Virus record (IMG/VR): IMGVR_UViG_3300043803_001357
Span: 1-64,000 of that record
Reading direction: 5' to 3' (one strand)
Length of the DNA stretch: 64,000 bases
Source: an uncultured virus (IMG/VR IMGVR_UViG_3300043803_001357)
Lineage: Duplodnaviria > Heunggongvirae > Uroviricota > Caudoviricetes
The notes beneath the pieces were generated by a model that was not told the DNA's origin, ran no database searches, and saw nothing but the letters and a program-made list of their open reading frames with translations. Within the stretch, counting starts at the first letter, position 1, and each line of letters begins with the position of its first letter. The position numbers and the translations under genes are program-made. Positions 26,578 to 48,000 of the stretch are shown here, piece after piece.

Positions 26578-27009
26578 ATGAAATTAAAACATTTACTAGA
26601 AAATTCCACTGAAGTAGCTTATAGTCCACTTACCAAAGAAGAAAAGTCAAAAATGGTTGGTGCTATTAGATCCTATAATGAATATCGCAAGGGATTAAAA
26701 GCCGATTGTGTATATGAAACTGCACAAAAAATTATGGAGGCTGTTAATCTAGCAGAACGCTACGCAATTAAAGAATGTGGCGACTGGATGCAAGCCAAAA
26801 TGGTTGAACGTGATATGAAAGAAATCAAAAGAGACGCTGCCAAAATGTATGAAGAAGCCAACAAAATGAAAGAAATTGAAAAACAACTTGAAATGTTGTA
26901 TGAACAAGTTGGTATGAGATTGGAACGTTATTTTGAAATTGCCGACCAAGTACACACTGATCCAAAACCACAAGAAGGCACTATTAACTCATCGGTATCG
27001 AATCAATAA
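26578..27009 (+). CDS. Hypothetical coiled-coil protein
   Basis: MKLKHLLEN N-terminus; LYEQVGMRLERYFEI; TATTTAT 5 nt upstream. Confidence 0.65.
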   Translation: MKLKHLLENSTEVAYSPLTKEEKSKMVGAIRSYNEYRKGLKADCVYETAQKIMEAVNLAERYAIKECGDWMQAKMVERDMKEIKRDAAKMYEEANKMKEIEKQLEMLYEQVGMRLERYFEIADQVHTDPKPQEGTINSSVSNQ

Positions 27010-27442
27010 ATTCCAACATTTTATCGAACGATTCAAAAACGTATCTTCTATTTGCTTCTATCACATAACCTTCGTCTGTTTTATAGACGAAGGTTTTTCT
27101 TTTCTCGTTGACCATATCTAAAGATGGAACTTCTATTTCAGAAAACATTCTGTATTCATCATCTATACGAAAATTCATTTCACCCAATATATCAATTTCC
27201 GTAAAATCCCATCCGTTTGGATTATCTATATCTTCTAACTTAAACATTTTTTCTTCTTCAAAATTATCATTGTTTATAAAGTTAATTAATTTTGGAGACT
27301 TATAATTGTTGTAGCTATTATTCATAGAACGCACATCTGGGTTGGAATATGGAGTTTCGTCCCCAGTTCTTTTTATAAACTTATAATTGTCTTTTGTGGA
27401 ATTCATATGTTTAGCTAGATTTGGATTGAAATTATAGGCCAT
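26984..27442 (-). CDS. Hypothetical protein
   Basis: 152-aa ORF overlapping the stop of the upstream minus-strand gene. Confidence 0.6.
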   Translation of the reverse strand: MAYNFNPNLAKHMNSTKDNYKFIKRTGDETPYSNPDVRSMNNSYNNYKSPKLINFINNDNFEEEKMFKLEDIDNPNGWDFTEIDILGEMNFRIDDEYRMFSEIEVPSLDMVNEKRKTFVYKTDEGYVIEANRRYVFESFDKMLEFIDSIPMS

Positions 27443-28025
27443 AAGAGTTAATTCTATCTATAAAGTCAGATAGGGTTTTTGTTTGTTCAGAATCTTTATT
27501 CTTATCCAAAGCAGTACTTAACATACTGAATATTTCTTTGTCTGGTTTATCAGGATAAGATCTTTGAATAAAACAAGCATATACAATTAAATTTTCATTT
27601 TTTTGATCTATGAGCTTTTTAAACACATATTTCTTGGTACTACCATTACTAAATATTTCAGTTTCTATTTTTGTATTTTCTGGTGGGTTAGGAATAAAAT
27701 TTGTTTTTCCAAATCCACTAAATCCCGCTTGTTTACTTTGAAAAGTTAACATTTCTTTTTTAGTAAACGCAATACCTTCATTTTCTTTTAGCACTTGGTT
27801 AAATGATTTGCCTTTAATGATATCAAAATCACTTAATGAATATTCTGCTTCATTAAGACTTTTCAATATTTCTTTCAATTTAACAAAGTGTTTTACACTA
27901 CTTGGTTTGATGGTACGTGCCATCTTACGAACTTGTGGTGAAACTTCTTTTGATTTGATTCCACCTTTTTGTAGTGCTCTTACCAATCTAAATAGTCTGG
28001 CTTGTTTTTCGCTTTTTGCAGGCAT
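27432..28025 (-). CDS. Hypothetical protein with DUF3008-like N-terminus
   Basis: MPAKSEKQARLF..KG..SPQVRKMA; TATTTAT on minus strand 6 nt upstream. Confidence 0.6.
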   Translation of the reverse strand: MPAKSEKQARLFRLVRALQKGGIKSKEVSPQVRKMARTIKPSSVKHFVKLKEILKSLNEAEYSLSDFDIIKGKSFNQVLKENEGIAFTKKEMLTFQSKQAGFSGFGKTNFIPNPPENTKIETEIFSNGSTKKYVFKKLIDQKNENLIVYACFIQRSYPDKPDKEIFSMLSTALDKNKDSEQTKTLSDFIDRINSYGL

Positions 28026-29309: not shown

Positions 29310-31136
29310 ATGAGTATGGATGTAAAAAGTCTATTGACAGGAAATATGAATCCACAAGCCAAATTGATGGCTGAAACACGTGGACTACAATCCAAGTGGG
29401 AAAAGACAGGCCTCCTAGAAGGTTGCCAAGGTGTTGAAAAAGCACATATGTCAATCCTATTGGAAAACCAAGCAAAACAATTGCTTGACGAAGCAACCAC
29501 CACCGGTACCTCTACCAGTTCAGAACAATGGGCTGGTGTAGCTCTACCATTGGTACGTCGTGTATTCGCTGAAATCGCCGCTAAGGAATTCGTCAGCGTA
29601 CAACCAATGAATCTACCATCTGGTCTAATTTTCTATCTAGACTTCAAGTATGGTACAACCGCTCCTGGTAGTGATTTGCGTAACTTGAACAACGGTAGTT
29701 CCGTAACTACCCGTGCAGGTAAGCAATTGAACGACAGTTTGTTTGGTGGTACAGGTAAGAAGTTGGGTTCAACTGATGACGCAGTACGTGGTCTATACGG
29801 TCAAGGTGCTTTTGCTTATTCAGTTCGTCCAGTAAGTAGCTCTGCTATTACCCTAGCTAAGAGTGCAACTGCAACCGCAACTGGTAACACCATCCAAACC
29901 GCTTCTTGGAACGACGTTCAATTTGCTGCTGAATTAAGCGCATCTGTCGTAGCTAAGAAGTTGTTCAAGGTTATCTTGAACCACGACGACAACACCACTG
30001 GTGTTGCTGGTCAAGGATATATGTACAACGTTGACTTGAACGCAGTACGTTCATTCAACTTGATTTCAGGTTCAGTTGCACCAACTTCTCTAAGAAGCAA
30101 TGGTTTGGTATTGAACACCTATTCAAAAGCAATTAACACTGGTAGTTTGAGCAATCCATTCTATCAATCCGTATATATCGTATCCGCTTCTAATAGCGCA
30201 TTCGGTGGTGCAGCAAGCAACGTTAAGTTGATCTATAGTCTACAACCTACCGATAACCTACGTGGTGACTTCGAAGCTGGTAAGACCCCAGGTGAAGGTT
30301 CCGGTACCGCTGGTAACGTTCCTACACAAAGCATCGATACTGATATCAGTATCCCAGAAGTAAACTTGGTACTAAACAGCGAACCAATCGTTGCTAAGAC
30401 CCGTAAGTTGAAAGCAGTCTGGACCCCAGAATTGGCTCAAGACTTGAACGCATATCACTCCATCGACGCAGAAGCAGAACTTACTGCTCTATTGAGTGAA
30501 TATGTATCTATGGAAATCGATCTTGAAATCCTAGACATGTTGAACGAAGCCGTTCAAGGCATAACAACCGAAGCTTGGTCCGCCCAAATCGGTGTTGAAT
30601 TCAGCAAGGGATTGAATGCAACTACTGGTGAAGCAATCTTCACACGTAATGCAAACAGTTCACCAAACCGTACTGCTTACGTAAAGAGCACTTGGTTCCA
30701 AACTCTTGGAAACAAGATCCAAAAGGTATCTAACACAATCCAAAAATTGACCCTACGTGGTGGTGCAAACTTCTTGGTCGTAAGTCCAGACGTTGCAACT
30801 ATCCTAGAATCAATCCCAGGATATGTAGTAAACACTGATGGTGATCAAGCTAAGTTCGCAATGGGCGTAAGCCGCGTTGGTAGCTTTGCTTCTCGCTTCC
30901 AAGTTTACAAGAACCCATACATGACCGATAACGTAGTATTGGTTGGTTTCCGTGGAAACAACTTCCTAGAAACCGGTGCTGTATATGCTCCATATATCCC
31001 ACTAATCCAAACTCCATTGGTCTATGATCCAGTGAACTTCACTCCACGTAGAGGCGTAATGACCCGCTACGCTAAGAAGGTAGTGCGCCCAGAGTTCTAT
31101 GGAAAAGTTATTATCGGCGATCTCGATACCGTATAA
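29310..31136 (+). CDS. Major capsid protein (T4 gp23-like)
   Basis: KWEKTGLLEG, LLENQ, VSVQPMNLPSGLIF, AKTRKLKAVWTPELAQDLNAYHSIDAEAEL, YAPYIPL, TRYA. Confidence 0.97.
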   Translation: MSMDVKSLLTGNMNPQAKLMAETRGLQSKWEKTGLLEGCQGVEKAHMSILLENQAKQLLDEATTTGTSTSSEQWAGVALPLVRRVFAEIAAKEFVSVQPMNLPSGLIFYLDFKYGTTAPGSDLRNLNNGSSVTTRAGKQLNDSLFGGTGKKLGSTDDAVRGLYGQGAFAYSVRPVSSSAITLAKSATATATGNTIQTASWNDVQFAAELSASVVAKKLFKVILNHDDNTTGVAGQGYMYNVDLNAVRSFNLISGSVAPTSLRSNGLVLNTYSKAINTGSLSNPFYQSVYIVSASNSAFGGAASNVKLIYSLQPTDNLRGDFEAGKTPGEGSGTAGNVPTQSIDTDISIPEVNLVLNSEPIVAKTRKLKAVWTPELAQDLNAYHSIDAEAELTALLSEYVSMEIDLEILDMLNEAVQGITTEAWSAQIGVEFSKGLNATTGEAIFTRNANSSPNRTAYVKSTWFQTLGNKIQKVSNTIQKLTLRGGANFLVVSPDVATILESIPGYVVNTDGDQAKFAMGVSRVGSFASRFQVYKNPYMTDNVVLVGFRGNNFLETGAVYAPYIPLIQTPLVYDPVNFTPRRGVMTRYAKKVVRPEFYGKVIIGDLDTV

Positions 31137-31246: not shown

Positions 31247-31990
31247 ATGAAAAGTGGTATATACAAAATTACAAATGTTAAGAATGGCAAGTTTTATATT
31301 GGTTCTGCTAAAGATATTGATCGTCGTTGGTGGGAACATAAAAATGATTTAAAAAAGAATAAACATAAGAATCCTAAATTACAACACGCTTGGGATTTTT
31401 ACGGGGAAAACAGTTTTGAATTTATTATATTAGAAAATGTAATAGAATGTGAATTGTTTAAACGAGAACAATTTTATTTAGATATGTTTAAACCCTATAT
31501 GCGTGATATAGGTTATAATATTACCCCAACCGCAAGTGGAGGCGATAATTTTACACATAATCCTGATAAAGAAGAAACTCGTCAGTTACTATCTGATATT
31601 AATCTAGGAGCTAAAAATCCTATGCACGGTAAAAAGCATAGTGATGAGGCTAAAGAAAGGCAACGTGATCGTGCTGTAGGACGTTATACTTTGGAGTGGT
31701 TTGTTGACAAGTATGGTATTGACAGTGGTACACTTAAGTACAAGGAGAGAAATGACAAATTGGCTAATCGTAATATTAATTACAGTTATGATAATGGATT
31801 AAAAGGCAAAAAGCGTGGTGCTATGAGTGATGAAATGAAACGTAAGATTAGTGAACAAAAGAGAAATTTTGCGCTTAGAAAGAATGAATTTGTTGATGAT
31901 TTAAAGAGTGGTAGTTTTACTAACAATGCATTAAGTGAGAAGTATGGAGTATCATTAACCACGATCAAATTACATAAAAGAAAATATTAG
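31247..31990 (+). CDS. Free-standing GIY-YIG homing endonuclease with NUMOD3-like repeats (Seg-like)
   Basis: SGIYKITN..FYIGSA, RWWEH, REQFYLD, GYNI; NPMHGKKHSDEAK and MSDEMKRKISE. Confidence 0.9.
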   Translation: MKSGIYKITNVKNGKFYIGSAKDIDRRWWEHKNDLKKNKHKNPKLQHAWDFYGENSFEFIILENVIECELFKREQFYLDMFKPYMRDIGYNITPTASGGDNFTHNPDKEETRQLLSDINLGAKNPMHGKKHSDEAKERQRDRAVGRYTLEWFVDKYGIDSGTLKYKERNDKLANRNINYSYDNGLKGKKRGAMSDEMKRKISEQKRNFALRKNEFVDDLKSGSFTNNALSEKYGVSLTTIKLHKRKY

Positions 31991-31992
31991 TT

Positions 31993-32241
31993 TTATTTTA
32001 TTTCCCAAGGAAAATGTCCACTTAAAATACAAACAATCCAAAATTTACATCTACATATAAAACTTACAAAGTATAATCTTATAAGTCCAATTATTACTTT
32101 GATCCACATATATTCCCAATGTCTAAATTGTTTATTTTGCGTAAATAAATTAATAATAAACAGTTTCGGGTTTGTTTTTACGAATAATAAATCTTCTTTG
32201 TATCTGGATTTTACATCCTTTAATGTAATATAGTCTTTCAT
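31993..32241 (-). CDS. Small hypothetical, possibly membrane protein
   Basis: 82-aa ORF 4 nt after the Mom-like gene; hydrophobic C-half. Confidence 0.45.
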   Translation of the reverse strand: MKDYITLKDVKSRYKEDLLFVKTNPKLFIINLFTQNKQFRHWEYMWIKVIIGLIRLYFVSFICRCKFWIVCILSGHFPWEIK

Positions 32242-32245
32242 ATTT

Positions 32246-33019
32246 TTATTCGAAAAATTCGTTGGTAGATGTTACAACGATTTCTTGTACTTCTTCTTTG
32301 AACGAAGTATCTTTGGGGTAAGGTAGAACTTTATGTTTAAGAGATTTAGTCAACTTTTTATTTTCTATTTTGTTACTGATAAACTTGATATAACGATGTT
32401 TACCACTTTCTCGTTTGCGCCAGAATGTTCTACCAATACGTTCTTTTAGTTTATCTACGCTGTGTGTTTTCCATCTTGAATATACACTTCTGCTGTGTAT
32501 CCAATCATAGTTAGGAGGACCAACTAAACTAACACTATAGTTAGGCATTATAGCGATATCTACATAGTTATCGCCTTGATATAGAAAGCCAGTTGCTTGA
32601 TAGATTGTGCCTGCGTGTCCAGCTTCACTATCCGCATAACTGAGAATACATTTGATGTGGGGATATTCAGTATTTAATAATCTAAAGCTTTCAGCTATAC
32701 AATAACTTTCTATATTTTTACCATAACCATCTGCAATCCACAGTCGTGTTAATTCTAACACATTGTTATTAGTAAGTAGTGAAGAGATACTGGTACTAGC
32801 ATTTCTACCCACGGCGTTTCCATATACTAATACACCTATTAATCGTTCGTTAAAACCACCAAAGAATGTACTCTCTACATATTCTTTATAGTATACTCCA
32901 TAAGCTACAGTACAAAGAGACCACTTGTGTGTATAATGATTCTTTTCAATAAGAGTTTTTGCAACATTCTTATTGATGCTTTTGATGTAAATTAATGTGG
33001 GGTCAAAATACTCCGACAT
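32246..33019 (-). CDS. Mom-like (GNAT-fold) DNA adenine modification protein
   Basis: IEKNHYTH, LIGVLVYG, LELTRLW, NIESY, ILSYADSEAGHAGTIYQATGFLY. Confidence 0.75.
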   Translation of the reverse strand: MSEYFDPTLIYIKSINKNVAKTLIEKNHYTHKWSLCTVAYGVYYKEYVESTFFGGFNERLIGVLVYGNAVGRNASTSISSLLTNNNVLELTRLWIADGYGKNIESYCIAESFRLLNTEYPHIKCILSYADSEAGHAGTIYQATGFLYQGDNYVDIAIMPNYSVSLVGPPNYDWIHSRSVYSRWKTHSVDKLKERIGRTFWRKRESGKHRYIKFISNKIENKKLTKSLKHKVLPYPKDTSFKEEVQEIVVTSTNEFFE

Positions 33020-33025
33020 TATTTC

Positions 33026-33053
33026 AGTATAACCATATAACTCTAACTGTCAA
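33026..33053 (-). promoter_or_regulatory. Sigma70-type promoter for Mom-like gene
   Basis: Minus strand TTGACA-16 nt-TATACT, ATG 6 nt downstream. Confidence 0.7.
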
Positions 33054-33056
33054 GAT

Positions 33057-33269
33057 TTATATTATATAAAAAAGACCTTTGGAATTATATACTACAGTTC
33101 TAATTTTGGTAGCATTAATCTTATTGATACCAAGTCTATCTATTACTTGAAATGGATCAGGGTGATTATTTATAGGAGCTGCCATAACTCTATCCTTTAT
33201 TTTGTATACATCCAAGTCTGTATTAACAATACTTGGATGATATTGTCTTACTAAAGGCATTGTTCTCAT
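33057..33269 (-). CDS. Hypothetical protein coupled to the cyclase gene
   Basis: ATGA overlap with the cyclase stop at 33266-33269. Confidence 0.55.
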   Translation of the reverse strand: MRTMPLVRQYHPSIVNTDLDVYKIKDRVMAAPINNHPDPFQVIDRLGINKINATKIRTVVYNSKGLFYII

Positions 33270-35041
33270 ACTGGTTTATTTGTTGTTGGTTCTGCTTTCT
33301 TTACTCTACTAGATGGAAATGATTTGTTACCAAAATCACTACCGTGTAAACTATACAAATGCATAACTACACCGTGTTTTACAACCACATCCCCCAAGTC
33401 ATTTACTAATACATATGGTGGTCTATCATATTTTAACATTACTGCTGAACTAACCAACAAATGATTGCTTTCACCTGCATCCATTACTCTTTGAGCATAG
33501 TTGATACCATCACCACTGATATTGAGATTGCCATTAATATCTTCCATTGGTATTACAGGTCCACAATGTACACCCATTCTCATTTGTAAATCCGGTCTAT
33601 CCTTTACTGCTTTAGCTATAGTAACTGCACAATTCATTGCATCTTCCAAATAAGTAAAGAATCCCAATACCATACCGTCACCAGTAGGTAATATAATTAA
33701 CTTTTCAAGCGCATTAGCTGTTTTGTATTGCATTGTAGACTTAACCAATGCACCCAAATCTTTACAAGCCTTCTTTTGTTCATCTGTTGTTTTCTTACTA
33801 TAAGCAACAATATCCATAAAGAATATATAACCTTCTTGTTCTACGTCCAATTGCAATCTACCAGATTTGACTTCTACATCAACTTGTTCAACTTTCTTGA
33901 CAACTTGTTTGACGGGTTTAACAACTTCTACCTTCTTTTCTTCTTTCTTTTCTACCACTGGAATATCTTTAAGTTTCAAGAAATCTTTCCAGTTAATTTT
34001 CTTAGCTGGTGCATCTTTTTTCTTTGGTTCTTTTGATGCTTGTTCTTCTTCGTGTTTCTTTATTGCAGCTTCTTCACGATTACGTTTTTCAACAAACAAT
34101 GCAATTTGCTTTTTAACTTCATCTGTGATGTATATGTTTACATCTTTTCCACCACCACCAATATCGTGTTTCTTTTTTCTTTGAGCACCTTTGGATTGCA
34201 GATATGTTTGCATTTCTACATTACCCGTCTTAAATGCCAAATCCAACGGAGCAATTTCACCTTTGAAATCTGCACCGTTAACATTCGCACCCAAATGTAC
34301 CAAAAATTCCACCATATCAACATCGTTAGCGTTAACGGCATAATGTAGTGGCATCCATCCATTCTTTTCATCTCTGCCATTGATTTTACCATCTTTATCA
34401 AAGAACGATTGTACACCTTCAAAATCTCCTGTTTCTGCGCAGAAATGAATACTAACACCTCCTGCGGATTTAGCACCGTACTTATTCAATAACTTAACAA
34501 TGTCACCTCTATTGGTATTGGATAGTACGTCAATAGGATTATTTTTACCCAAGAAATCTTTCTTGTTAACATCAGCTCCTCTTACAATTAGATATTCAAC
34601 CAAGTGTTTTTGTCCGTAATTTACTGCATAATGTAGTGCGGTCCAACCTTTGCCAGCGTCAACTTCATTGATATCAAATCCCTTGTCTAACATTTCTTCA
34701 ATAGAAACGATATCACCATTTTTTGCGGCTAAATGGAAACTACTACCGCTACTGTATTTTGCACCTCTTTGTTGTAGTATTTCTGCGATATTTTTAAAAC
34801 CTTTTTGTTCAGCTACATCCAGTGCTGTATTTTTACTGGTCCAATCTTTACAGTTGGGATCTGCACCGTGATTTAACAGTAGTTTTACGATTTCCACTTG
34901 ATTTTCTTCTACAGCAACAACCAATGGTGGATTGCCTGTATCATCGTCTCTTTGATTGACATCTACTTTTTCTTTTTCGATACAGTTGTAGACGTTATCG
35001 TATAACCCACGTTTGATGTGGGTAAAAATGTTAATAGCCAT
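33266..35041 (-). CDS. Ankyrin-repeat protein fused to class III nucleotidyl cyclase domain
   Basis: About nine ankyrin repeats (GWTALHYAV, GADVN); Lys-rich linker; FMDIVAYS, PTGDGM, RMGVHCGPV, GINYAQRVMD, VKHG. Confidence 0.88.
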   Translation of the reverse strand: MAINIFTHIKRGLYDNVYNCIEKEKVDVNQRDDDTGNPPLVVAVEENQVEIVKLLLNHGADPNCKDWTSKNTALDVAEQKGFKNIAEILQQRGAKYSSGSSFHLAAKNGDIVSIEEMLDKGFDINEVDAGKGWTALHYAVNYGQKHLVEYLIVRGADVNKKDFLGKNNPIDVLSNTNRGDIVKLLNKYGAKSAGGVSIHFCAETGDFEGVQSFFDKDGKINGRDEKNGWMPLHYAVNANDVDMVEFLVHLGANVNGADFKGEIAPLDLAFKTGNVEMQTYLQSKGAQRKKKHDIGGGGKDVNIYITDEVKKQIALFVEKRNREEAAIKKHEEEQASKEPKKKDAPAKKINWKDFLKLKDIPVVEKKEEKKVEVVKPVKQVVKKVEQVDVEVKSGRLQLDVEQEGYIFFMDIVAYSKKTTDEQKKACKDLGALVKSTMQYKTANALEKLIILPTGDGMVLGFFTYLEDAMNCAVTIAKAVKDRPDLQMRMGVHCGPVIPMEDINGNLNISGDGINYAQRVMDAGESNHLLVSSAVMLKYDRPPYVLVNDLGDVVVKHGVVMHLYSLHGSDFGNKSFPSSRVKKAEPTTNKPV

Positions 35042-35056
35042 AGTTTAATTAGTAAA

Positions 35057-35434
35057 TTAGTCTTTTTTGAAACGGCTTAAATCCAATTGAGGTAGTGGTT
35101 TTTCTATGTTTAGACCAGCTAGTCTTTCATTTTGGATAACTAATTTACTTCCGCCTACAACCTTACCATCTACTACGTCATATATGAAAAATACAGTTTT
35201 TGTAAGTCCCACACGAACAATTCTGCCGGGTTTGCCATCAATATATACAACATCATCTTCTTTGTAATCGGACCCAATAAACATAAACAGTGCCGCGGCA
35301 AGTTTTTCAATGCTTGATTTAAACATTAGAATTACTAATCCCGCTACGAACATCCAGACATATTTGCCTGTCATATCTTGTGCGGTTGATTCTAGTACCT
35401 GTTGAGATATTACGTGTGCTGTATTTGTATCCAT
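35057..35434 (-). CDS. Small membrane protein with MscS-like TM + beta domain
   Basis: TM VWMFVAGLVILMF, amphipathic IEKLAAALFMF, then YKEDDVVYIDGKPGRIVRVGLTKT resembling the MscS middle domain; likely start 35434. Confidence 0.55.
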   Translation of the reverse strand: MDTNTAHVISQQVLESTAQDMTGKYVWMFVAGLVILMFKSSIEKLAAALFMFIGSDYKEDDVVYIDGKPGRIVRVGLTKTVFFIYDVVDGKVVGGSKLVIQNERLAGLNIEKPLPQLDLSRFKKD

Positions 35435-35509
35435 AATCGTCTTTAGTTTATTAACACATAACATTTGTTAACAATCCAAAACAATTATATAATAAATATA
35501 AATATTAAT

Positions 35510-36475
35510 TTATTTAATCCACTTTTGTTCTTTTAGAATATCATCAATCAATTCTTTTTCGGAACTATCCATTTCTTTATCAAATCTTTTCAATACTTCA
35601 GTCAATGGATATACTCTATCAGGAGATTCTTTTTGTTTTTCTTTTAGTTCTTGAATTACATCAACTATTTTAACAAGTGGAGACTTGAATTCATCAACTT
35701 TGTCTTTTGAAGCGAAGTTAGCCAATTCAAATGCATGTGGAGTTAATGCTTTTACCAAACTTAGTAATCCAGAACCAATCATATTAAATATACTAAATGC
35801 TGCACCAGCTGCTGGATGTACTGTTGCTAATATTCTTAATATAACAAATACCACAACAAATATGATAATTGCGGTCATTGCACTAACAAAGAACTTTTTT
35901 AAACCCCAAAATACAGCATTAAGACCAAACATACCACTCATAGCATCCAAAGTAGCCTTGCTTTGATCAGCTTCTTTTGCAATTTCTTTTGCTTTATCAG
36001 TCATTTGCCATAATTCATCGTCATACTTTTCTTTCAAAGCAGACTTTTCTTTTTGCAATTTGTTTATGATTTCGTCACGTTGTGATAGTAATTGATCACC
36101 CTTTTTTCTTTCCTCAGCAACTTGACTGTTTAATAAATCAACGGTAGCTTTTATACGTTTAATTTCATCTATGTGTGGTGATCCAACTATAGAAATTACA
36201 CGTTCATTGAGTGATTTAGCAGTATCTACTTGTACTGACGGGTTTGTTACTTGACTTAAAGAGTGTTGAATACCTATAGACAAAGACGATGCTTGTACAC
36301 GTTTGCCTTTTTCTACTTTTTCCAACTCTACCATCGTATTATCTACTTTGGCTTCTTGTTTAGCAACAGCGTCTTGTGCAGTTGTAACTTGCTTCGCCGG
36401 TCTAACTTCAGACGAAATACAACCGGTTAGTATTAAAATTACGATGGTGTAAAACAGTTGTTTTTTAAAGTTCAT
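35510..36475 (-). CDS. Lipoprotein with coiled coil and C-terminal TM segments (spanin-like architecture)
   Basis: MNFKK + hydrophobic stretch + LTGC lipobox; long heptad region; TM AMTAIIIFVVVFVILRIL. Confidence 0.6.
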   Translation of the reverse strand: MNFKKQLFYTIVILILTGCISSEVRPAKQVTTAQDAVAKQEAKVDNTMVELEKVEKGKRVQASSLSIGIQHSLSQVTNPSVQVDTAKSLNERVISIVGSPHIDEIKRIKATVDLLNSQVAEERKKGDQLLSQRDEIINKLQKEKSALKEKYDDELWQMTDKAKEIAKEADQSKATLDAMSGMFGLNAVFWGLKKFFVSAMTAIIIFVVVFVILRILATVHPAAGAAFSIFNMIGSGLLSLVKALTPHAFELANFASKDKVDEFKSPLVKIVDVIQELKEKQKESPDRVYPLTEVLKRFDKEMDSSEKELIDDILKEQKWIK

Positions 36476-36520
36476 ATAATATAAATATTATTTTTTATAA
36501 TAAAACTAATATTTATCAAT

Positions 36521-37129: not shown

Positions 37130-37395
37130 TGAGTCTACCGTTTATAGAAAACCCACTGGGTAACAGTCAGTATATAAGAGAATTTAGTTCCGATGTAGCT
37201 ACTCACGAACTGGAATGGCATATAGATCGTGAAGACAGAACCGTTGAAGTTATAGAAAATAACAATTGGCACTTTCAATTAGATAATAATTTACCACAAT
37301 TACTTAAAGAAACAATATTTATACCTAAAGAAACATACCACCGTGTAATAAAAGGCACAGGTAATCTAAAAGTAAGAATAACAAAACACATATGA
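37129..37395 (+). CDS. Small cupin-fold protein
   Basis: LEWHIDREDR..IFIPKETYHRVIKG. Confidence 0.6.
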   Translation: MSLPFIENPLGNSQYIREFSSDVATHELEWHIDREDRTVEVIENNNWHFQLDNNLPQLLKETIFIPKETYHRVIKGTGNLKVRITKHI

Positions 37396-38711
37396 AATTT
37401 ATTGATTTATTAACAGAAGTTAAAATGTACGAAACACTTGGGTTACCTGATGACAGTATTATCCCACTAGATACGTTTGTATGTGAATGTAAAAATTGCG
37501 TAAATCAATCTCTATATGAAGCTATAAATGATACCGATAACAATTTAAAGATATGTTTGACTGAAGCGAACAAAAAGGAGCCTATTAGTTTTGAGTTGGC
37601 CGAATTAATGAAGAATATTGCCCGAGACACTCAAGGAAGATTAAAACTGTTGAGTGTATTAAACGATCCAAAAACACTGAAGTCTTTCTTAGATGACAAA
37701 GGATATTTGACTGCAATTTTATATTTGGCTCCCTCTGATTCATCAGGTCACGAAGTGTGTCCAAAGAAAAGTCCGGAATGTAACGCTGGTTGTTTGAATT
37801 TTGCTGGTAACCCTGCATATCTAAAAGCAAAATTAGCAGCAAGAGCTAGAAAAACTCGTTGGTTGTTTGGTGACAAATTGACATCTGATGAGATGAAAAA
37901 TATTCCTACAGATCCAAAAATTATAGATAGATTTTATGGCAAAGGTAGACCCGGACCCGAAGGTAAACGTGGTAGAATATTGAATCCAATGCGTCCTGAA
38001 GACTTCATTGAAAGATTGCAAATTGAAATGGAGTTTTTGAAAAAAGTGGCTGCTAAATACAATTTAAAGTTATCGGTTAGATTAAACGGTACGAGCGATC
38101 TTGATTTTCATAAAAAATTGGAAAGTTGGAAATCTGCAAATCCAGATGTTAAATTTTATGACTATACAGCCGTGTTTAAATGGGCAATGCAAAGTCTTGA
38201 AGATCCTTCAAAACCACATATGACTTTTTCAAGAAAAGAAACTTTACAAAACAATATAGAATGTGAAAAATATTTGAAGGCTGGTGGTAATATTTCCGCA
38301 ATATTTGATGAATTACCAGAATATTATCGTGGTTATAAAGTAATTGATGCAGATAGAACCGATTTGAGATTTTTAGACGATAGTGATCGACCAATTGATC
38401 CTGATACAGGTAAACCCGTGGGTGTAATCGCCGGATTAAAGATGAAGGGATTTAGATTAAAAGACGCATTTGCCTTGGGTATAATACAAAATAAGGGACC
38501 AGAAGATACATTCGTAATAAGAACCAAGGAATTGAGGAAAAGATTTGGAGATAAGTATTTTACACAAAAAATTCATTGGGGTGATCGCGCACCAACAGAG
38601 CCAAACAATATTACTGCTAAACAGATCTATAAAGATAAAATCAAGAATTATTTAAATAAAATATCAAGTAAATTGAAAGGTACAGCTGATAAAACGGATG
38701 AAAAAATATGA
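37392..38711 (+). CDS. Gp88-like protein with Cys triad (possible Fe-S/radical-SAM-like)
   Basis: ILYLAP..VCPKKSPECNAGCL, VRLNGTSDL, FYDYT, DADRTDLRFLD, GLKMKG. Confidence 0.65.
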   Translation: MKFIDLLTEVKMYETLGLPDDSIIPLDTFVCECKNCVNQSLYEAINDTDNNLKICLTEANKKEPISFELAELMKNIARDTQGRLKLLSVLNDPKTLKSFLDDKGYLTAILYLAPSDSSGHEVCPKKSPECNAGCLNFAGNPAYLKAKLAARARKTRWLFGDKLTSDEMKNIPTDPKIIDRFYGKGRPGPEGKRGRILNPMRPEDFIERLQIEMEFLKKVAAKYNLKLSVRLNGTSDLDFHKKLESWKSANPDVKFYDYTAVFKWAMQSLEDPSKPHMTFSRKETLQNNIECEKYLKAGGNISAIFDELPEYYRGYKVIDADRTDLRFLDDSDRPIDPDTGKPVGVIAGLKMKGFRLKDAFALGIIQNKGPEDTFVIRTKELRKRFGDKYFTQKIHWGDRAPTEPNNITAKQIYKDKIKNYLNKISSKLKGTADKTDEKI

Positions 38712-38768
38712 TATGTGAATTAACAAATTATAAACTGTATATTTTTGTTGTTTAGATATTTATAATTA

Positions 38769-42032: not shown

Positions 42033-45000
42033 ATGTCAACATTAAAGAAAGATCCATGCGAGGTTTCTCCAATAAAATTGGATAATGCTCTGTATGATTA
42101 TAAAAAATTAACAGCGACTTTTAAAGATCCTACCACAGAGCTGTTTCTTAAAATAATCGACGAATTACGTAAAATTATTTATTGTCGAACCAGTTCTCAG
42201 TTTTTCAACAATGTTGCTACTAAACAAATACCATGCGATCAAAAATCAAAAACTTGGGTATTTGATCATAATTTAAACTCAGATCTAGTATTAATTCAAA
42301 CATACGACGAGAATTTCAATCAATTAATACCAGAAACAATAGTACTCAATAATGATAATACCGCAACCATAACTTTTTCGTTTGATGCATGCGGATACAT
42401 CATAGGTGTAAGCGGTAATATCAGCACCAGTGGTACTTCAGGCACAGGCACCAGTGGTAGTAGTGGTAGTAGCGGAGAAAAAGGATCAGCTGGATCAAGC
42501 GGAACAAGCAATACAAGCGGCACAAGCGGTACAAGCACATCTTCAGGTACCAGTGGTAGTCAAGGCACAAGCGGTACAAATGGTGAGGGTGGTAGTAGCG
42601 GTCAAAGTGGCGATATAGGAACCAGTGGAACTAGTGGAGAAAATGGAAGCAGTGGTACAAGCGGTAGTAGTGGTTTATTAGATGGATCAAGCGGATCAAG
42701 TGGTACAAGTACTACAAGCGGTACAACCGGCACAAGTGGCACAAGAGGATCAAGCGGTAGATCAGGCACCAGTGGAAGCAGCGGAACAAGTGGTAGTAGC
42801 GGAACAAGTGGTACTAGTGGTACAAGTGGTACCAGTGGTACAAGTGGCACAAACGGTACTAGTGGTAGCAGTGGCACCAGTGGTACAAGCGGATCTAGTG
42901 GCACAAGTGGTACAAATGGATCAAGTGGTACAAGTGGTAGCAGCGGATCAAGTGGTACAAGTGGATCAAGTGGTACAAGTGGTACAAGCGGATCTAGTGG
43001 CACCAGTGGTACTAGTGGTACGAGTGGTACCAGTGGGTCAAGTGGATCGAGCGGATCTAGTGGCACAAGTGGCACATCTGGTATAAGTGGAAGCAGTGGT
43101 TCAAACGGCACAAGCGGCACAAATGGCACCAGTGGCACAAGTGGTACTAGTGGAACAAGTGGTACAAGTGGTACAAGCGGTACAAGTGGATCATCTGGTA
43201 ATAGTGGATCATCCGGTAGTAATGGGACAAATGGCACCAGTGGTACAAGCGGCACAAGTGGTACAAGCGGTACTAGTGGTACAAGCGGAACAAGTGGTAC
43301 AAGTGGTACAAGCGGTACAAGCGGTACTAGTGGATCAAGTGGATCAAGTGGGTCAAGTGGATCAAATGGTACAAACGGCACTAATGGTACAAATGGCACT
43401 AGTGGTACAAGCGGCACTAGCGGTACAAGTGGTACCAGTGGTACAAGTGGATCAAGTGGGTCAAGTGGGTCAAGTGGGTCAAGTGGATCAAGTGGATCTA
43501 ATGGAACAAATGGTACCAGTGGTACAAATGGTACCAGTGGTACTAGCGGAACAAGTGGTACAAGCGGTACTAGCGGATCAAGTGGTTCAAGTGGTTCAAG
43601 TGGGTTAAGTGGTTCAAGTGGTTCATCTGGTACTAGCGGATCGTCTGGCAGTAGCGGAACAAGTGGATCTAATGGCACAAACGGCACAAGTGGTACTAGC
43701 GGCACAAGTGGTACTAGCGGCACAAGTGGTACTAGCGGCACAAGTGGATCAAGTGGATCAAGTGGTACTAGTGGATCAAATGGTACAAGCGGATCTAACG
43801 GCACAAATGGCACAAGTGGATCAAATGGTACAAGTGGAACGAGTGGTACAAGCGGTACAAGTGGTAGTAGTGGAACAAGTGGTACAAGTGGTAGTAGTGG
43901 AACAAGTGGATCAAATGGCACAAGTGGTACTAGCGGATCAAACGGCACAAGTGGATCTAATGGCACAAGTGGTACTAGTGGTACAAGCGGTACTAGTGGT
44001 ACAAGCGGTACTAGTGGATCGAGTGGATCAAGTGGATCAAGTGGATTAAGCGGTTCAAGTGGATCATCTGGTACTAGCGGATCAAGTGGATCATCTGGTA
44101 CCAGCGGATCCAATGGAACGAATGGAACAAGTGGATCGTCCGGTACTAGCGGATCAAGTGGATCGTCTGGTACTAGCGGATCAAGTGGATCATCCGGTAC
44201 AAGTGGATCTAATGGAACAAGTGGTACTAGCGGATCTAACGGTACCAGTGGTAGCAGTGGCACAAGTGGTACAAGCGGATCAAGTGGTACTAGCGGTACA
44301 AGTGGATCAAGTGGATCAAGTGGTTCAAGTGGTTCAAGCGGATCAAGTGGCAGTAGTGGTACTAGTGGATCAAACGGTACTAGTGGTACAAGCGGTACAA
44401 ACGGTACTAGTGGTTCAAGTGGTTCAAGTGGATTAAGTGGATCAAGTGGATCATCTGGTACAAGCGGATCAAGCGGTAGTAGTGGATCATCTGGTACAAG
44501 CGGATCTAATGGTACAAGCGGTAGTAGTGGATCAAATGGTACCAGTGGCACAAGTGGCACAAGTGGTACAAGTGGATCTAATGGTACAAGCGGTAGTAGT
44601 GGCACAAGCGGTAGTAGTGGATCATCTGGAACAAGTGGATCTAATGGCACAAGCGGTACAAGTGGTAGCAGTGGATCTTCTGGTATAAGTGGTAGTAGTG
44701 GAACGAGTGGCACAAGCGGTAGTAGTGGAACAAGTGGTAGTAGTGGATCAAATGGCACAAGCGGATCAAATGGTACTAATGGTACTAACGGTACTAACGG
44801 TACAAGTGGTACATCTGGTAGTAGTGGAACAAGTGGTACTAGTGGAACAAGTGGATCATCTGGAACAAGCGGATCTAATGGTACAAGTGGAACAAGTGGG
44901 TCAAACGGTACAAGCGGTAGTAGTGGAACAAGCGGTACTAGTGGTACTAGTGGCACAAGTGGTACTAGTGGCACAAGTGGTACTAGTGGATCATCTGGTA

Positions 45001-48000
45001 TAAGTGGAACAAGCGGATCAAACGGCACAAGTGGTACAAGCGGATCAAACGGCACAAGTGGTACAAGCGGTACTAGTGGCACAAGTGGTACAAGCGGTAC
45101 TAGTGGCACAAGCGGTACAAGTGGTAGTAGTGGATCAAGTGGTACTAGTGGATCAAATGGCACAAGCGGCACAAGCGGCACTAGTGGTACTAGTGGTACG
45201 AGCGGATCTAATGGCACAAGCGGTACTAGTGGAACAAGTGGATCTAATGGCACAAGTGGTACAAGCGGCACAAGTGGTACAAGTGGGTCAAGTGGATCAA
45301 ATGGTACAAGTGGGTCAAGTGGATCAAGCGGTACAAGTGGGTCAAATGGATCAAGCGGTACAAGTGGATCTAATGGCACAAGTGGCACAAGTGGTAGTAG
45401 TGGATCTTCTGGTATAAGTGGCAGCAGTGGTACAAATGGAACAAGCGGCACCAGTGGCGTAAGTGAATCAAGTGGATCAAGTGGAAGCAGTGGTACTAGT
45501 GGCACAAGTGGATCCAACGGTACAAGTGGCAGTAGTGGTACAAGTGGTACAAGTGGTAGTAGTGGTACAAGTGGATCAAATGGAAGCAGTGGCACAAGTG
45601 GAAGCAGTGGTACTAGTGGCACAAGTGGATCTAACGGTACAAGTGGTACTAGTGGTACTAGTGGTACTAGTGGTACAAGCGGTACTAGTGGTAGTAGCGG
45701 ATCGTCTGGTATAAGTGGGTCAAGTGGATCAAGTGGCACAAGTGGTACAAGCGGATCGAACGGCACCAGTGGGTCAAGTGGATCAAGTGGATCAAGTGGC
45801 ACAAGCGGATCAAGTGGATCAAGTGGTACAAGCGGATCTAACGGTACAAGCGGATCTAACGGTACAAGTGGCACAAGTGGATCCAACGGTACAAGTGGTA
45901 GTAGCGGATCGTCTGGTATAAGTGGTAGCAGTGGAACAAACGGCACCAGTGGTACAAGTGGCACAAGTGGTATAAGCGGATCAAACGGTACAAGTGGTAG
46001 TAGCGGATCGTCTGGTACTAGCGGATCAAGTGGATCTAACGGTACAAGTGGTACAAATGGTACTAGTGGCACAAGCGGTACAAGTGGATCTAATGGTACC
46101 AGTGGTAGCAGTGGCACAAGTGGTACAAGCGGATCAAGTGGTACTAGTGGCACAAGCGGAACAAGTGGAACAAGCGGCAGTAATGGATCAAGTGGCACAA
46201 GTGGTATAAGTGGGTCAAATGGTACTAGTGGCACAAGCGGTACTAGTGGTAGTAGCGGATCGTCTGGTGTAAGTGGATCAAGTGGATCAAGTGGGTCAAG
46301 TGGGTCAAGTGGATCAAGTGGGTCAAGTGGATCAAGTGGTACAAGTGGATCAAGTGGGTCAAATGGTACTAGTGGCACAAGCGGAACAAGTGGATCAAGT
46401 GGGAGCAGTGGTACCAGTGGCACTAGTGGTACGAGTGGATCAAATGGTACCAGTGGAACGAGTGGAACAAGTGGTATAAGTGGGTCAAATGGTACAAATG
46501 GTACTAGTGGCACAAGTGGAACAAGTGGATCAAGTGGTAGCAGTGGTACTAATGGTACTAGTGGTACAAGTGGTATAAGCGGATCAAATGGCACCAGTGG
46601 AACAAGCGGAACAAGTGGTACCAGTGGTACTAGTGGTAGCAGTGGTACAAGCGGATTTAGTCGTGATAGTGGTAGCAGTGGTAATAGTGCCACAAGTGGT
46701 AGTAGTGGTACAAGTGGTAGTAGCGGTACAAGTGGAACAAGTGGTAGCAGTGGTCAAAACGGAACAAGCGGAACAAATGGAACGAGTGGCACTAGCGGAA
46801 CAAGTGGAACTAGTGGTAGCAGTGGTAGCAGTGGTATTAGTGGTAGCAGTGGTAGAAATGGAACCAGTGGTACAAGTGGCACAAGCGGAACAAGCGGAAC
46901 AAGTGGTACTAGTGGTAGCAGTGGTACAAGCGGATTTAGTCGTGATAGTGGTAGCAGCGGTAATAGTGCCACAAGTGGTAGTAGTGGTACAAGTGGTAGT
47001 AGCGGTACAAGTGGAACAAGTGGTAGCAGCGGTCAAAACGGAACAAGCGGTACTAGTGGCACAAGCGGAACCAGTGGTAGTAGTGGTAGTAGTGGTAGCA
47101 GTGGTACAAGTGGTACAAGTGGTACGAGTGGTCGAAATGGAACCAGTGGTACAAGTGGTACAAGCGGAACCAGTGGTACAAGTGGAAGTAGTGGTACAAG
47201 CGGATTTAGTCGTGATAGTGGTAGCAGCGGTAATAGTGCCACAAGTGGTAGTAGTGGTACAAGTGGTAGTAGTGGAACGAGCGGCACAAGTGGTAGTAGC
47301 GGTCAAAACGGAACAAGTGGAACAAACGGAACAAGTGGCACAAGTGGAACGAGCGGAACAAGTGGTAGCAGTGGCACAAGTGGTCGAAATGGAACCAGTG
47401 GAACAAGTGGTAGCAGTGGTACGAGTGGCACAAGCGGAACGAGTGGTAGTAGTGGTACTGTTGGTACAAGTGGAACAAGTGGTGTAAGTGCTGGTGGAGG
47501 TGCTAGTGCTAGTAGTGGAAGTAGTGGTATAAGTGGAACTAGTGGTAGCAGTGGTACGAGTGGCACTAGTGGTATTAGTGCTCCTAGTGGTACCAGTGGA
47601 ATTAGTGGTGGTAGTTTTACTGATCAGCCTAATTATTTGGTAAAAACTACTGGTCTTACTACGTTACAGAGTGTTAATTTTTTAAGTGTGGATGGTACTA
47701 CATTAACAGTTGTTGGAACTGTTAGTGCTACTACATTGATAGAAACGTCTAGTGAAAATACTAAAACGGATATTATGCCTTTATTGCCGCCGCAATTGGA
47801 CAAGATTGTGTTATTGAATCCGGTGACATTTAGGTATAAGAACAACAATGAATTTAGTATTGGTTTGATAGCTGAAGAGGTTGTGAAGATATATCCTGAA
47901 TTTGTTAGTTATGATGAGTTGGGTAATATATCTGGTATAAATTATAGTAAATTGACAGCTGTATTGATACAGGGTGTTAAAGAATTGAAGCAGATAGTTG

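Follow-up and report, generated by a model that had tools for sequence, protein, structure and literature searches.

MscS-type channels, cyclase-based signalling systems of bacteria and phage spanins are the described systems which come closest to the genes treated here. In the parts of the reports considered, TcMscS of Trypanosoma cruzi (165 aa, PDB 9bgq) is described as a heptamer whose subunits comprise a short N-terminal helix, TM2, TM3 and the beta-domain, and which is still mechanosensitive without the alpha/beta cage domain (PMC12334622). Pycsar systems are presented there as pairs of the cyclase PycC and an effector, PycTM or PycTIR, that bears a cyclic-nucleotide-binding domain (PMC11224242). 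Furthermore, the u-spanin gp11 of phage T1 is characterised by an N-terminal lipoylation signal and a C-terminal membrane helix (PMC6139136). Here we describe a block of four minus-strand genes at positions 33057-36475 of a 64,000-nucleotide stretch of DNA from an uncultured virus (IMG/VR record IMGVR_UViG_3300043803_001357), in which proteins resembling these systems in part are encoded side by side. In the order of transcription the block encodes a lipoprotein (o321), a miniature MscS (o135), a fusion of ankyrin repeats with a class III nucleotide cyclase (AnkCyc) and a small protein (o70). The analysed stretch, called the window in the following, makes up most of a source record of 75,570 bases that is rated 32% complete.

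The block belongs to a T4-like water phage; as an accessory operon it is conserved in the uncultured lineage of this phage, and it is probably a new kind of phage membrane/signalling module, not a known defence system. Its anatomy as described below is very likely correct. An earlier sequence-only reading had seen four co-oriented minus-strand genes inside a plus-strand structural region, with which the open reading frames (ORFs) and the flanks agree, and its gene labels were borne out by the lipobox of o321 (LTGC), the MscS-like nature of o135 and the ankyrin and Guanylate_cyc matches of AnkCyc. With regard to function we favour, at a probability of about 40%, a late envelope-permeability or lysis-timing module that works with a phage-made cyclic mononucleotide (cNMP).

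The encoded proteins

Profile and fold alike show o135 to be a homologue of MscS, but of its pore helix (TM3) and beta-domain only. A profile of its family, searched against PDB at E ≤ 1, matched MscS-family channels in 23 of 24 cases (MscS, MscM, MscK, YnaI, MSL1), with 4hw9 as the best match (E 9.5e-4), aligned over TM3 and the beta-domain. The Pfam family PF00924 is matched at E ≤ 0.01 by 30 of 66 diverse family members (best E 1.7e-6). An AlphaFold (AF2) model of o135 has a pLDDT of 90.2; its top Foldseek matches in PDB are all MscS-family (4hwa, E 1.8e-4), TcMscS is among the matches, and cellular MscS structures align with about 22-24% identity over about 86-93 columns at about 3.6 Å. 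In a viral structure library the model matched three unnamed small viral proteins and then giant-virus MscS homologues.

The protein begins with an acidic N-terminal helix, followed by a hydrophobic helix of 14 residues (residues 35-48, TM3a-like), an amphipathic helix (TM3b-like) and the beta-domain, with which it essentially ends. In most homologues the start is the second Met (MDTNT, base 35434). Profile and fold thus relate o135 to the MscS proteins of E. coli and H. pylori (2oau, 4hwa, 4hw9; PF00924) over TM3 and the beta-domain, but the TM1-TM2 sensor paddle is absent (a single 14-residue stretch, no window of 19 residues exceeding 1.6 in Kyte-Doolittle hydropathy), and so are the cytoplasmic alpha/beta domain and the C-terminal barrel that form the cage, since the chain stops about 20 residues past the beta-domain. 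With TcMscS it shares the reduction to the pore helix TM3a/TM3b plus beta-domain and the very short membrane helices; it differs in its length of 126-135 aa, in having one hydrophobic helix instead of TM2 and TM3, in the bulky residues of this helix and in being phage-encoded. R81, T90 and N112 are nearly invariant in the family and lie in the stretch which the profile aligns to the MscS beta-domain. Compared by eye with MscS, T90 and N112 would correspond to its conserved Thr and to the Asn of its 'PN' motif; R81 stands opposite a Thr in the E. coli protein.

The mini-MscS family is large and, in the viral and protein cluster collections that were covered, apparently phage-only. It comprises 1462 relatives of o135 in a 90%-clustered collection and 240 clusters at 50% identity, with lengths of 41-229 aa among the 150 of these 240 clusters that were listed; the Atlas clusters closest to o135 are 100% viral. 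PHROGs, PADLOC and NCBIfam gave only coiled-coil matches at chance level for o70, o135 and o321, and the cultured-phage collection, searched by blastn and tblastn, held no match to o135, o321 or the cyclase half of AnkCyc.

Such a truncated protein might also act as a dominant-negative mimic, which co-assembles with host MscS-family subunits and locks osmotic valves shut or open; in an extended form of this idea, the MotA/ExbB fragments of a distant clade (see below) would do likewise to host proton channels. The restriction of the homology to the heptamer-interface core (TM3 and beta-domain) would suit this role, as would the second shortened host-type channel protein that lies beside AnkCyc in the distant loci L181 and L220 (115 and 171 aa) and the confinement of the family to viral clusters among the closest Atlas clusters. 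However, the identity to cellular MscS is low, and TcMscS shows that such a core can itself be a channel. We consider the mimic very improbable.

AnkCyc is a soluble class III cyclase and probably makes a cyclic-nucleotide signal. Its ankyrin part was recognised by Pfam (Ank_2, Ank) as tandem ANK repeats, the unit of which has 33 residues; residues 100-290 are kept in a distant clade, residues 1-100 in the close clade only. The cyclase domain reaches 23.2 bits against Guanylate_cyc (PF00211; cut-off 21.9, profile positions 93-182) and 25.1 bits in a six-frame search, and in PDB it matches 3mr7 of Ruegeria pomeroyi (E 3.2e-4) and 1ybt, Rv1900c/LipJ of M. tuberculosis (E 0.0035), with which it has the motifs F-x-D-I-V-x-Y-S, P-T-G-D-G and G-I-N-x-A-Q-R in common. 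Positioned by the alignment to 3mr7 and 1ybt, D410, D455, N514 and R518 are invariant in all 15 AnkCyc sequences from two clades. The first two are the metal-binding Asp residues and the last two the transition-state Asn and Arg, so by sequence AnkCyc keeps the metal-binding and transition-state residues of a class III cyclase intact. The base-selecting pair is canonically Lys/Asp for ATP and of the Glu/Cys type for GTP. AnkCyc has the canonical pair in neither form: invariant Pro452 and Asn507 occupy the Lys/Asp positions, and its product is therefore not predictable.

The same set of motifs including the Pro/Asn positions is found in a cellular cyclase subfamily with 37-47% identity, of which at least 577 stretches occur in species-representative genomes, mostly of soil Verrucomicrobiota and Acidobacteriota. 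Among 15 of these proteins that were scanned, ten carry TPR repeats, three a Ser/Thr kinase domain, one TIR plus AAA_35 and one TolB_N. Because TPR fusions dominate, a repeat-type binding domain is the rule for a cyclase of this subfamily, and the phage swaps TPR for ankyrin; unlike the cellular form with its C-terminal TPR, AnkCyc has its ankyrin domain at the N-terminus, and the phage protein is soluble. The TIR plus AAA_35 fusion, encoded in an Armatimonadota metagenome-assembled genome (L284:4941-7040), has a defence-like architecture which is unlike the common cyclase-TPR form. In the cultured-phage collection the ankyrin half is the sole part of AnkCyc that was matched, mainly in Wolbachia WO and Leptospira phages.

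A class III-type cyclase gene next to a membrane protein gene recalls Pycsar in broad outline, and the sequence-only reading had likened the block to CBASS and Pycsar. In a system of this kind the cyclase signal would open a membrane effector and kill the cell by abortive infection. This kinship did not stand. PADLOC returned no PycC, CD-NTase, CBASS or effector match and met AnkCyc in its ankyrin part only, and neither Pfam nor PADLOC gave a CD-NTase (cGAS/DncV-like) match. CBASS uses CD-NTases, not class III cyclases. The structure 7r65, which we take to be PycC, was not among the PDB matches of the cyclase domain at E ≤ 1. For o135, o321 and o70 no cNMP_binding match appeared even at E ≤ 10, as the earlier reading had itself cautioned for the membrane proteins, and PF00027 was found in none of five related phage records (two rated complete) as against 11 of 14 control genomes. 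Any receptor would accordingly belong to the host or to a type that escapes recognition. In contrast to Pycsar, moreover, the genes are phage-encoded, stand in the structural module of a lytic phage under a late-type motif and have a partner from a mostly cyclase-free membrane family. A phage-carried Pycsar- or CBASS-like system is thus extremely unlikely.

o321 starts with a signal and lipobox (MNFKKQLFYTIVILILTGC), the Cys19 of which is invariant in 15 of 15 homologues, and it is conserved over its whole length. About 170 aa are predicted to be helical or coiled, followed by a strong hydrophobic helix (195-217), a weaker one (about 223-243) and a highly conserved C-terminal tail of 80 aa. 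The homologues (n = 1142) belong to no Pfam family, and their Atlas clusters are 98-100% viral. On these features o321 is a lipoprotein with at least one membrane helix, which can tie envelope layers together. The N-terminal lipobox and the later membrane helix resemble the u-spanin gp11 of phage T1. However, o321 is with 321 aa much longer, its periplasmic part is predicted to be helical instead of beta, about 100 residues including the weaker hydrophobic helix follow after 195-217, no endolysin or holin gene adjoins it in the window, and PHROGs revealed no sequence similarity to spanins. o70 is a conserved small protein, predicted to be soluble and without a family match. It follows AnkCyc in most relatives, also where AnkCyc lies 12 kb from the mini-MscS gene (L058). 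A 76-aa ORF that overlaps the AnkCyc stop in a marine clade was considered as its homologue and rejected, since BLASTP gave no alignment.

All four genes are under purifying selection, with dN of 0.11-0.19 against 74%-identical relatives. Where dS could be computed, for o70 and for o321 against one relative, dN/dS is 0.08-0.12 (o70, 0.09-0.12); in the remaining gene comparisons dS is saturated.

Neighbourhoods in related phages

IMG/VR contains many relatives of the region with 73-100% identity. In this close clade 58 distinct mini-MscS loci were collected, 48 of them with at least 2.5 kb of downstream sequence, and in 47 of these 48 a cyclase gene comes directly after mini-MscS. Automatic scoring found AnkCyc and/or a membrane-bound sensor cyclase there in 46 loci, and AnkCyc of the 47th (L129) was shown by tblastn and translation; in the last one (L134) only a gene with an HD motif occupies the slot, and AnkCyc plus o70 are 12.5 kb away. 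The membrane-bound sensor cyclase of the relatives is canonical (Guanylate_cyc, E about 1e-27; CyaB of P. aeruginosa, E 2.4e-29). At least six different gene orders occur, among them mini-MscS followed by AnkCyc-o70, by AnkCyc-barrel-like-membrane cyclase-HD-motif, by barrel-like-membrane cyclase-HD-motif, by HD-motif alone, and by a 206-aa ORF-holin-family-AnkCyc-o70. The cargo has thus been reshuffled and is still cNMP-related. The gene of o321 is ahead of mini-MscS in all close-clade loci except L043 and L049, and in L132 both genes overlap. Gene-neighbourhood conservation had been proposed as a check by the sequence-only reading itself; it was found in the close clade, and the order recurs in a distant one.

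Some of the accompanying genes deserve a comment. The HD-motif protein was considered as a phosphodiesterase, which is no more than a guess and was set aside (Pfam HD, E 0.0075, below the cut-off; no meaningful PDB match), and the outer-membrane-barrel-like protein has no family match. The holin-family gene between mini-MscS and AnkCyc (phrog_2359, E 1.4e-11) belongs to a relative that is rated complete. In L126 and L134, where the cassette sits elsewhere in the genome, a 2H-phosphoesterase gene lies directly upstream of o321 (both 6482-7003; 2_5_RNA_ligase2, E 3.4e-10; a weak sub-threshold match to the anti-CBASS protein Acb1, E 0.001). It is another cyclic-nucleotide-related gene at the o321 locus.

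In a distant, marine-type clade the mini-MscS protein is 39% and AnkCyc 33% identical to that of the window, and the mini-MscS gene stands beside a PhoH-like gene, a label given by reading the sequence. AnkCyc is present in the fetched flanks of 16 of 80 marine loci that were seeded with mini-MscS, at 0-3 kb and in either orientation, once at 5.5 kb; in L175 and L228 it starts 8 nt after mini-MscS. Conversely, eight of 17 loci seeded with AnkCyc have mini-MscS in the fetched flanks. In a third set, made up of other mini-MscS subfamilies, several loci belong to small temperate phages, in which mini-MscS is found between tail-fibre genes and the integrase gene, among small membrane and coiled-coil ORFs.

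Several observations on the marine-type loci stand by themselves. Directly upstream of AnkCyc, L181:7122-7469 (115 aa) and L220:9206-9721 (minus strand, 171 aa) encode shortened MotA/TolQ/ExbB-family proteins, which match only part of the MotA_ExbB profile (E 5.6e-16 and 7.9e-20). Many of these phages (L150-L190; e.g. L156:5592-5906, minus strand, and 5959-6414, plus strand) have two divergent mini-MscS paralogues beside the PhoH-like gene, and in L193, L204, L212 and L220 the gene of a lipoprotein of 75-91 aa overlaps the mini-MscS stop codon. Two marine-type contigs (L166:6420-8347, L241:132-1145) contain genes with a prepilin-type N-terminus (KGFTLIELLVV...), which look similar to DUF1559 proteins, a type characteristic of Planctomycetota and Verrucomicrobiota, and which may hint at the host.

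By these distributions, mini-MscS is a membrane protein found widely in phages and functioning independently of a cyclase; the cyclases are add-ons which selection retains next to it in some lineages. The cyclase-free clades and the separations of 12-15 kb mark the membrane pair (o321 and o135) and the cyclase as two separable units. Of the cyclase-membrane module proposed by the sequence-only reading, what holds is that a repeat-domain cyclase and membrane proteins are encoded together in one block of a phage genome. As mini-MscS is mostly cyclase-free, it is not a dedicated cNMP-gated effector, and a strict signal-gated pair is ruled out. On the other hand, two unrelated cyclase architectures and an HD-motif gene in one slot support a functional link, and so does an adjacency that survives deep divergence in another genomic context. 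That the membrane pair and the cyclase are functionally linked is, in our view, slightly favoured. They are not an obligate sensor-effector pair and are kept together by selection in some lineages.

Without such a link, AnkCyc could serve a takeover of host signalling: it would raise or reshape host cAMP/cGMP and thereby redirect cNMP-dependent regulators of the host, with o321 and o135 as mere neighbours, and in the relatives the membrane sensor cyclase and the HD-motif protein would take part, the membrane genes just sharing the same variable accessory region. The receptor would then have to be the host's, as no cNMP-binding domain was found in the five related records, and the nearest cellular relatives of the cyclase are ordinary signal-transduction proteins (10/15 TPR, 3/15 kinase). 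The distance of 12-15 kb between AnkCyc and the membrane pair in three contigs and the variable intervening genes and orientation in the distant clade would also be in line with it. However, every close-clade order keeps a cNMP-related gene after mini-MscS (47/48 cyclase, 1/48 HD-motif), the gap between o135 and AnkCyc is as short as 15 nt and free of a promoter motif, and the two genes still adjoin where their proteins are only 33-39% identical and the genomic surroundings differ. Hence the takeover is a serious alternative, if an unlikely one.

Expression signals and genomic setting

On the minus strand TATTTAT is exactly where the sequence-only reading had put it, at 36481-36487 and at 35492-35504, the latter stretch containing two copies. 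It is part of a longer motif, ATATTTATA, which occurs 14 times in the window. Ten of the 14 copies precede a gene start by at most 60 nt in sense orientation, against an expectation of 0.3, and the same upstream windows contain a single antisense copy. Genes with ATATTTATA ahead of them include those of the sheath, tube, fibre, adaptor and tape-measure-like proteins, and it is before none of the six replication genes checked (primase, SbcCD, ssb, UvsX, exonuclease, helicase). By analogy with the T4 late promoter, ATATTTATA is probably a structural-gene (late-like) promoter element. One copy stands before o321 and a double one before o135, whereas neither the 15 nt ahead of AnkCyc nor the region ahead of o70 contains it; the transcription units would therefore be o321 alone and o135-AnkCyc-o70. 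Within the latter the TGA of AnkCyc and the ATG of o70 share 4 nt, a stop/start coupling.

A late-type signal also bears on superinfection exclusion or inter-phage competition, in which o321 and o135 would block receptor use or DNA entry and the cyclase would modulate them. Exclusion genes of virulent phages, e.g. T4 imm and sp, are early, whereas the motif of the cassette is the structural genes' own and was not seen ahead of the replication genes checked. As one would wish for exclusion, o321 and o135 are small proteins of the envelope that lack an enzymatic domain, and in small temperate phages mini-MscS follows closely on tail-fibre genes and has the integrase gene as a neighbour, a usual place for exclusion and moron genes such as those of the lipoproteins Cor and Llp; in several marine-type loci, furthermore, small lipoprotein genes overlap the mini-MscS stop. 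Nevertheless, PHROGs and PADLOC showed no similarity to known exclusion proteins, and we hold this role to be distinctly unlikely.

Contigs from two metatranscriptome libraries of two studies include near-identical pieces of the cassette. They cover 33100-33250 and 33233-33415 in o70/AnkCyc (0 and 1 differences), 34751-35176 (6 differences in 426) and 35833-36111 in o321 (4 differences in 279), with parts of the stretch left without cover. As DNA carry-over is possible, strand and ends are not shown by such contigs and depths cannot rank genes, they are a weak hint of cassette expression.

The window encodes a Gp23-type major capsid protein, portal, terminase, sheath, tube, baseplate and giant fibre proteins in a T4-like set, with replication genes at both ends. 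The closest cultured capsid proteins, those of Microcystis phage Mel-JY01 and Flavobacterium phage immuto, are 48-50% identical, and at the DNA level cultured phages match the region in short stretches only (blastn, phage collection). The coordinates are collected in Table 1. The co-oriented minus-strand block has six genes, the four of the earlier reading plus a Mom-like gene of the DNA-modification type and an 82-aa hydrophobic ORF; plus-strand structural genes resume from 36521, and GC skew is negative solely at 32-36 kb. The Mom-like gene and the 82-aa ORF are missing at the locus in 74%-identity relatives and in the distant clade and are same-strand neighbours outside the module. The Mom-like gene has a sigma-70-like promoter of its own, which is one of just two strict matches in the window and marks this gene as a separate unit, the transcription unit of the cassette ending there.

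Table 1 Features of the cassette and its surroundings (window coordinates; aa amino acids)
Feature	Position	Strand	Description
Gp23-type major capsid gene	29310-31136	+	flank of the minus-strand block
GIY-YIG/NUMOD3 homing-endonuclease gene	31247-31990	+	between capsid gene and minus-strand block
82-aa hydrophobic ORF	31993-32241	-	only in closest relatives
Mom-like gene	32246-33019	-	Pfam Mom, E 1.2e-44
Sigma-70-like promoter TTGACA-16-TATACT	33026-33053	-	ahead of Mom-like gene
o70	33057-33269	-	70 aa ORF
AnkCyc (ankyrin and class III cyclase fusion)	33266-35041	-	591 aa ORF
Class III nucleotide cyclase domain, AnkCyc residues 395-575	33317-33859	-	Pfam Guanylate_cyc
Lys/Glu-rich variable linker, AnkCyc residues 291-394	33860-34171	-	alignment; no family match
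Ankyrin-repeat domain, AnkCyc residues 1-290	34172-35041	-	Pfam Ank_2, E 2.6e-38; Ank, E 4.7e-37
o135 (miniature MscS)	35057-35464	-	135 aa ORF
Promoter-like motif, two overlapping TATTTAT copies	35492-35505	-	28-41 nt upstream of o135 ATG at 35464
o321 (predicted lipoprotein)	35510-36475	-	321 aa ORF
Promoter-like motif ATATTTATA	36480-36488	-	4-12 nt upstream of o321 ATG

Other features of the window are independent of the cassette. The GIY-YIG gene carries a strict TTGACA-17-TATACT promoter and behaves as a mobile insertion: of relatives that are nearly identical elsewhere, some have it, some lack it and some have a diverged copy (74-77% identity). A GP88-family gene (37392-38711, plus strand) is missing from many close relatives, and one DNA-type contig skips it by joining 37433 to 38754; it is a presence/absence polymorphism in the population. 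The gene of a collagen-like tail fibre of 2002 aa (42033-48041, plus strand) has a GC content of 0.46-0.49 as against about 0.32 and a strong GC skew, and its repeat composition seems to have given rise to the long antisense ORF at 42602-46693. A second short minus-strand pair (26984-28025; 152 and 197 aa) is located inside the head module, its upstream gene with a ATATTTATA-type motif 13 nt before the start.

Possible role in envelope permeability and lysis timing

In the reading which we favour, o135 would be assembled into the inner membrane of the host late in infection, where it would form a small pore by itself or enter MscS-type channels of the host as a subunit. AnkCyc would dimerise and make a cyclic mononucleotide, and this signal would be sensed by receptors of the host or by a phage receptor that escapes recognition. 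By binding a protein, possibly the cytoplasmic ring of the membrane protein whose gene is adjacent, the ankyrin domain would place or regulate the cyclase. Control of membrane permeability, turgor and lysis timing would be the purpose. This reading is suggested by the late-type motif, the holin-family gene of a relative, the spanin-like features of o321 and the position of mini-MscS in temperate phages. The sequence-only reading had left the choice between superinfection exclusion, inter-phage defence, lysis timing and rewiring of host cNMP signalling; with the late motif and the holin-family gene, lysis timing and rewiring fit best, and an abortive inter-phage defence fits least.

A number of findings speak against a permeability or lysis-timing module with phage-made cNMP. 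Some concern the membrane proteins: o135 alone stays below the cut-off of PF00924 MS_channel_2nd (E 0.013; 16 bits, cut-off 20.2), and a pore is not assured, since its 14-residue helix has bulky side chains where TM3a of MscS is packed by Gly/Ala. The AF2 model of o321 is all-helical and of low confidence (pLDDT 58, pTM 0.20). Others concern the association with the cyclase, which is lacking in the fetched flanks of 64 of the 80 marine-type mini-MscS loci, while nine of the 17 AnkCyc-seeded loci have no mini-MscS nearby and all 30 loci of the third set lack cyclase and ankyrin genes within 6 kb of mini-MscS. Even in the close clade there are three contigs with AnkCyc 12.5-14.6 kb from o321-o135; the far-off AnkCyc has o70 in two of them, and none was detected beside that of L019. 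A last group concerns lysis and expression. PHROGs found no endolysin, holin or spanin family in the 59 ORFs of the 75.6 kb contig, and Phage_lysozyme and Amidase_2, the only two lysin families tried, gave nothing above the cut-off in the five related records. The holin-family gene is present in one of these five only, and its label is soft because phrog_2359 also matches five of 14 control genomes. The RNA-library contigs, finally, do not prove transcription.

A more specific and decidedly improbable version is a phage second-messenger circuit, in which an ankyrin-tethered cyclase docks, at the inner membrane of the host, on the phage's own cut-down versions of host channels, mini-MscS here and mini-MotA/ExbB in the distant clade. 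Envelope tension, the proton-motive force or the insult of a superinfection would be turned into a cNMP pulse by which lysis is timed.

The literature that was searched, supplements aside, gave no description of phage MscS-like proteins, phage ankyrin cyclases or phage class III cyclases, and a 2018 survey of viral transport proteins, in the parts of its text considered here, names large viruses of eukaryotes as the sole viruses with mechanosensitive-channel homologues. Should mini-MscS proteins conduct ions or poison host channels, they would be a new class of phage membrane effector and the smallest natural MscS core. The Pro/Asn cyclase subfamily is abundant in soil bacteria, and class III cyclases of phages, fused to ankyrin repeats or to a membrane sensor, would mean that phages make cNMP and do not only degrade or sequester that of the host. 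The second-messenger circuit, if true, would serve as a lysis clock or as a signal of lysis inhibition, of a kind so far undescribed in phages.

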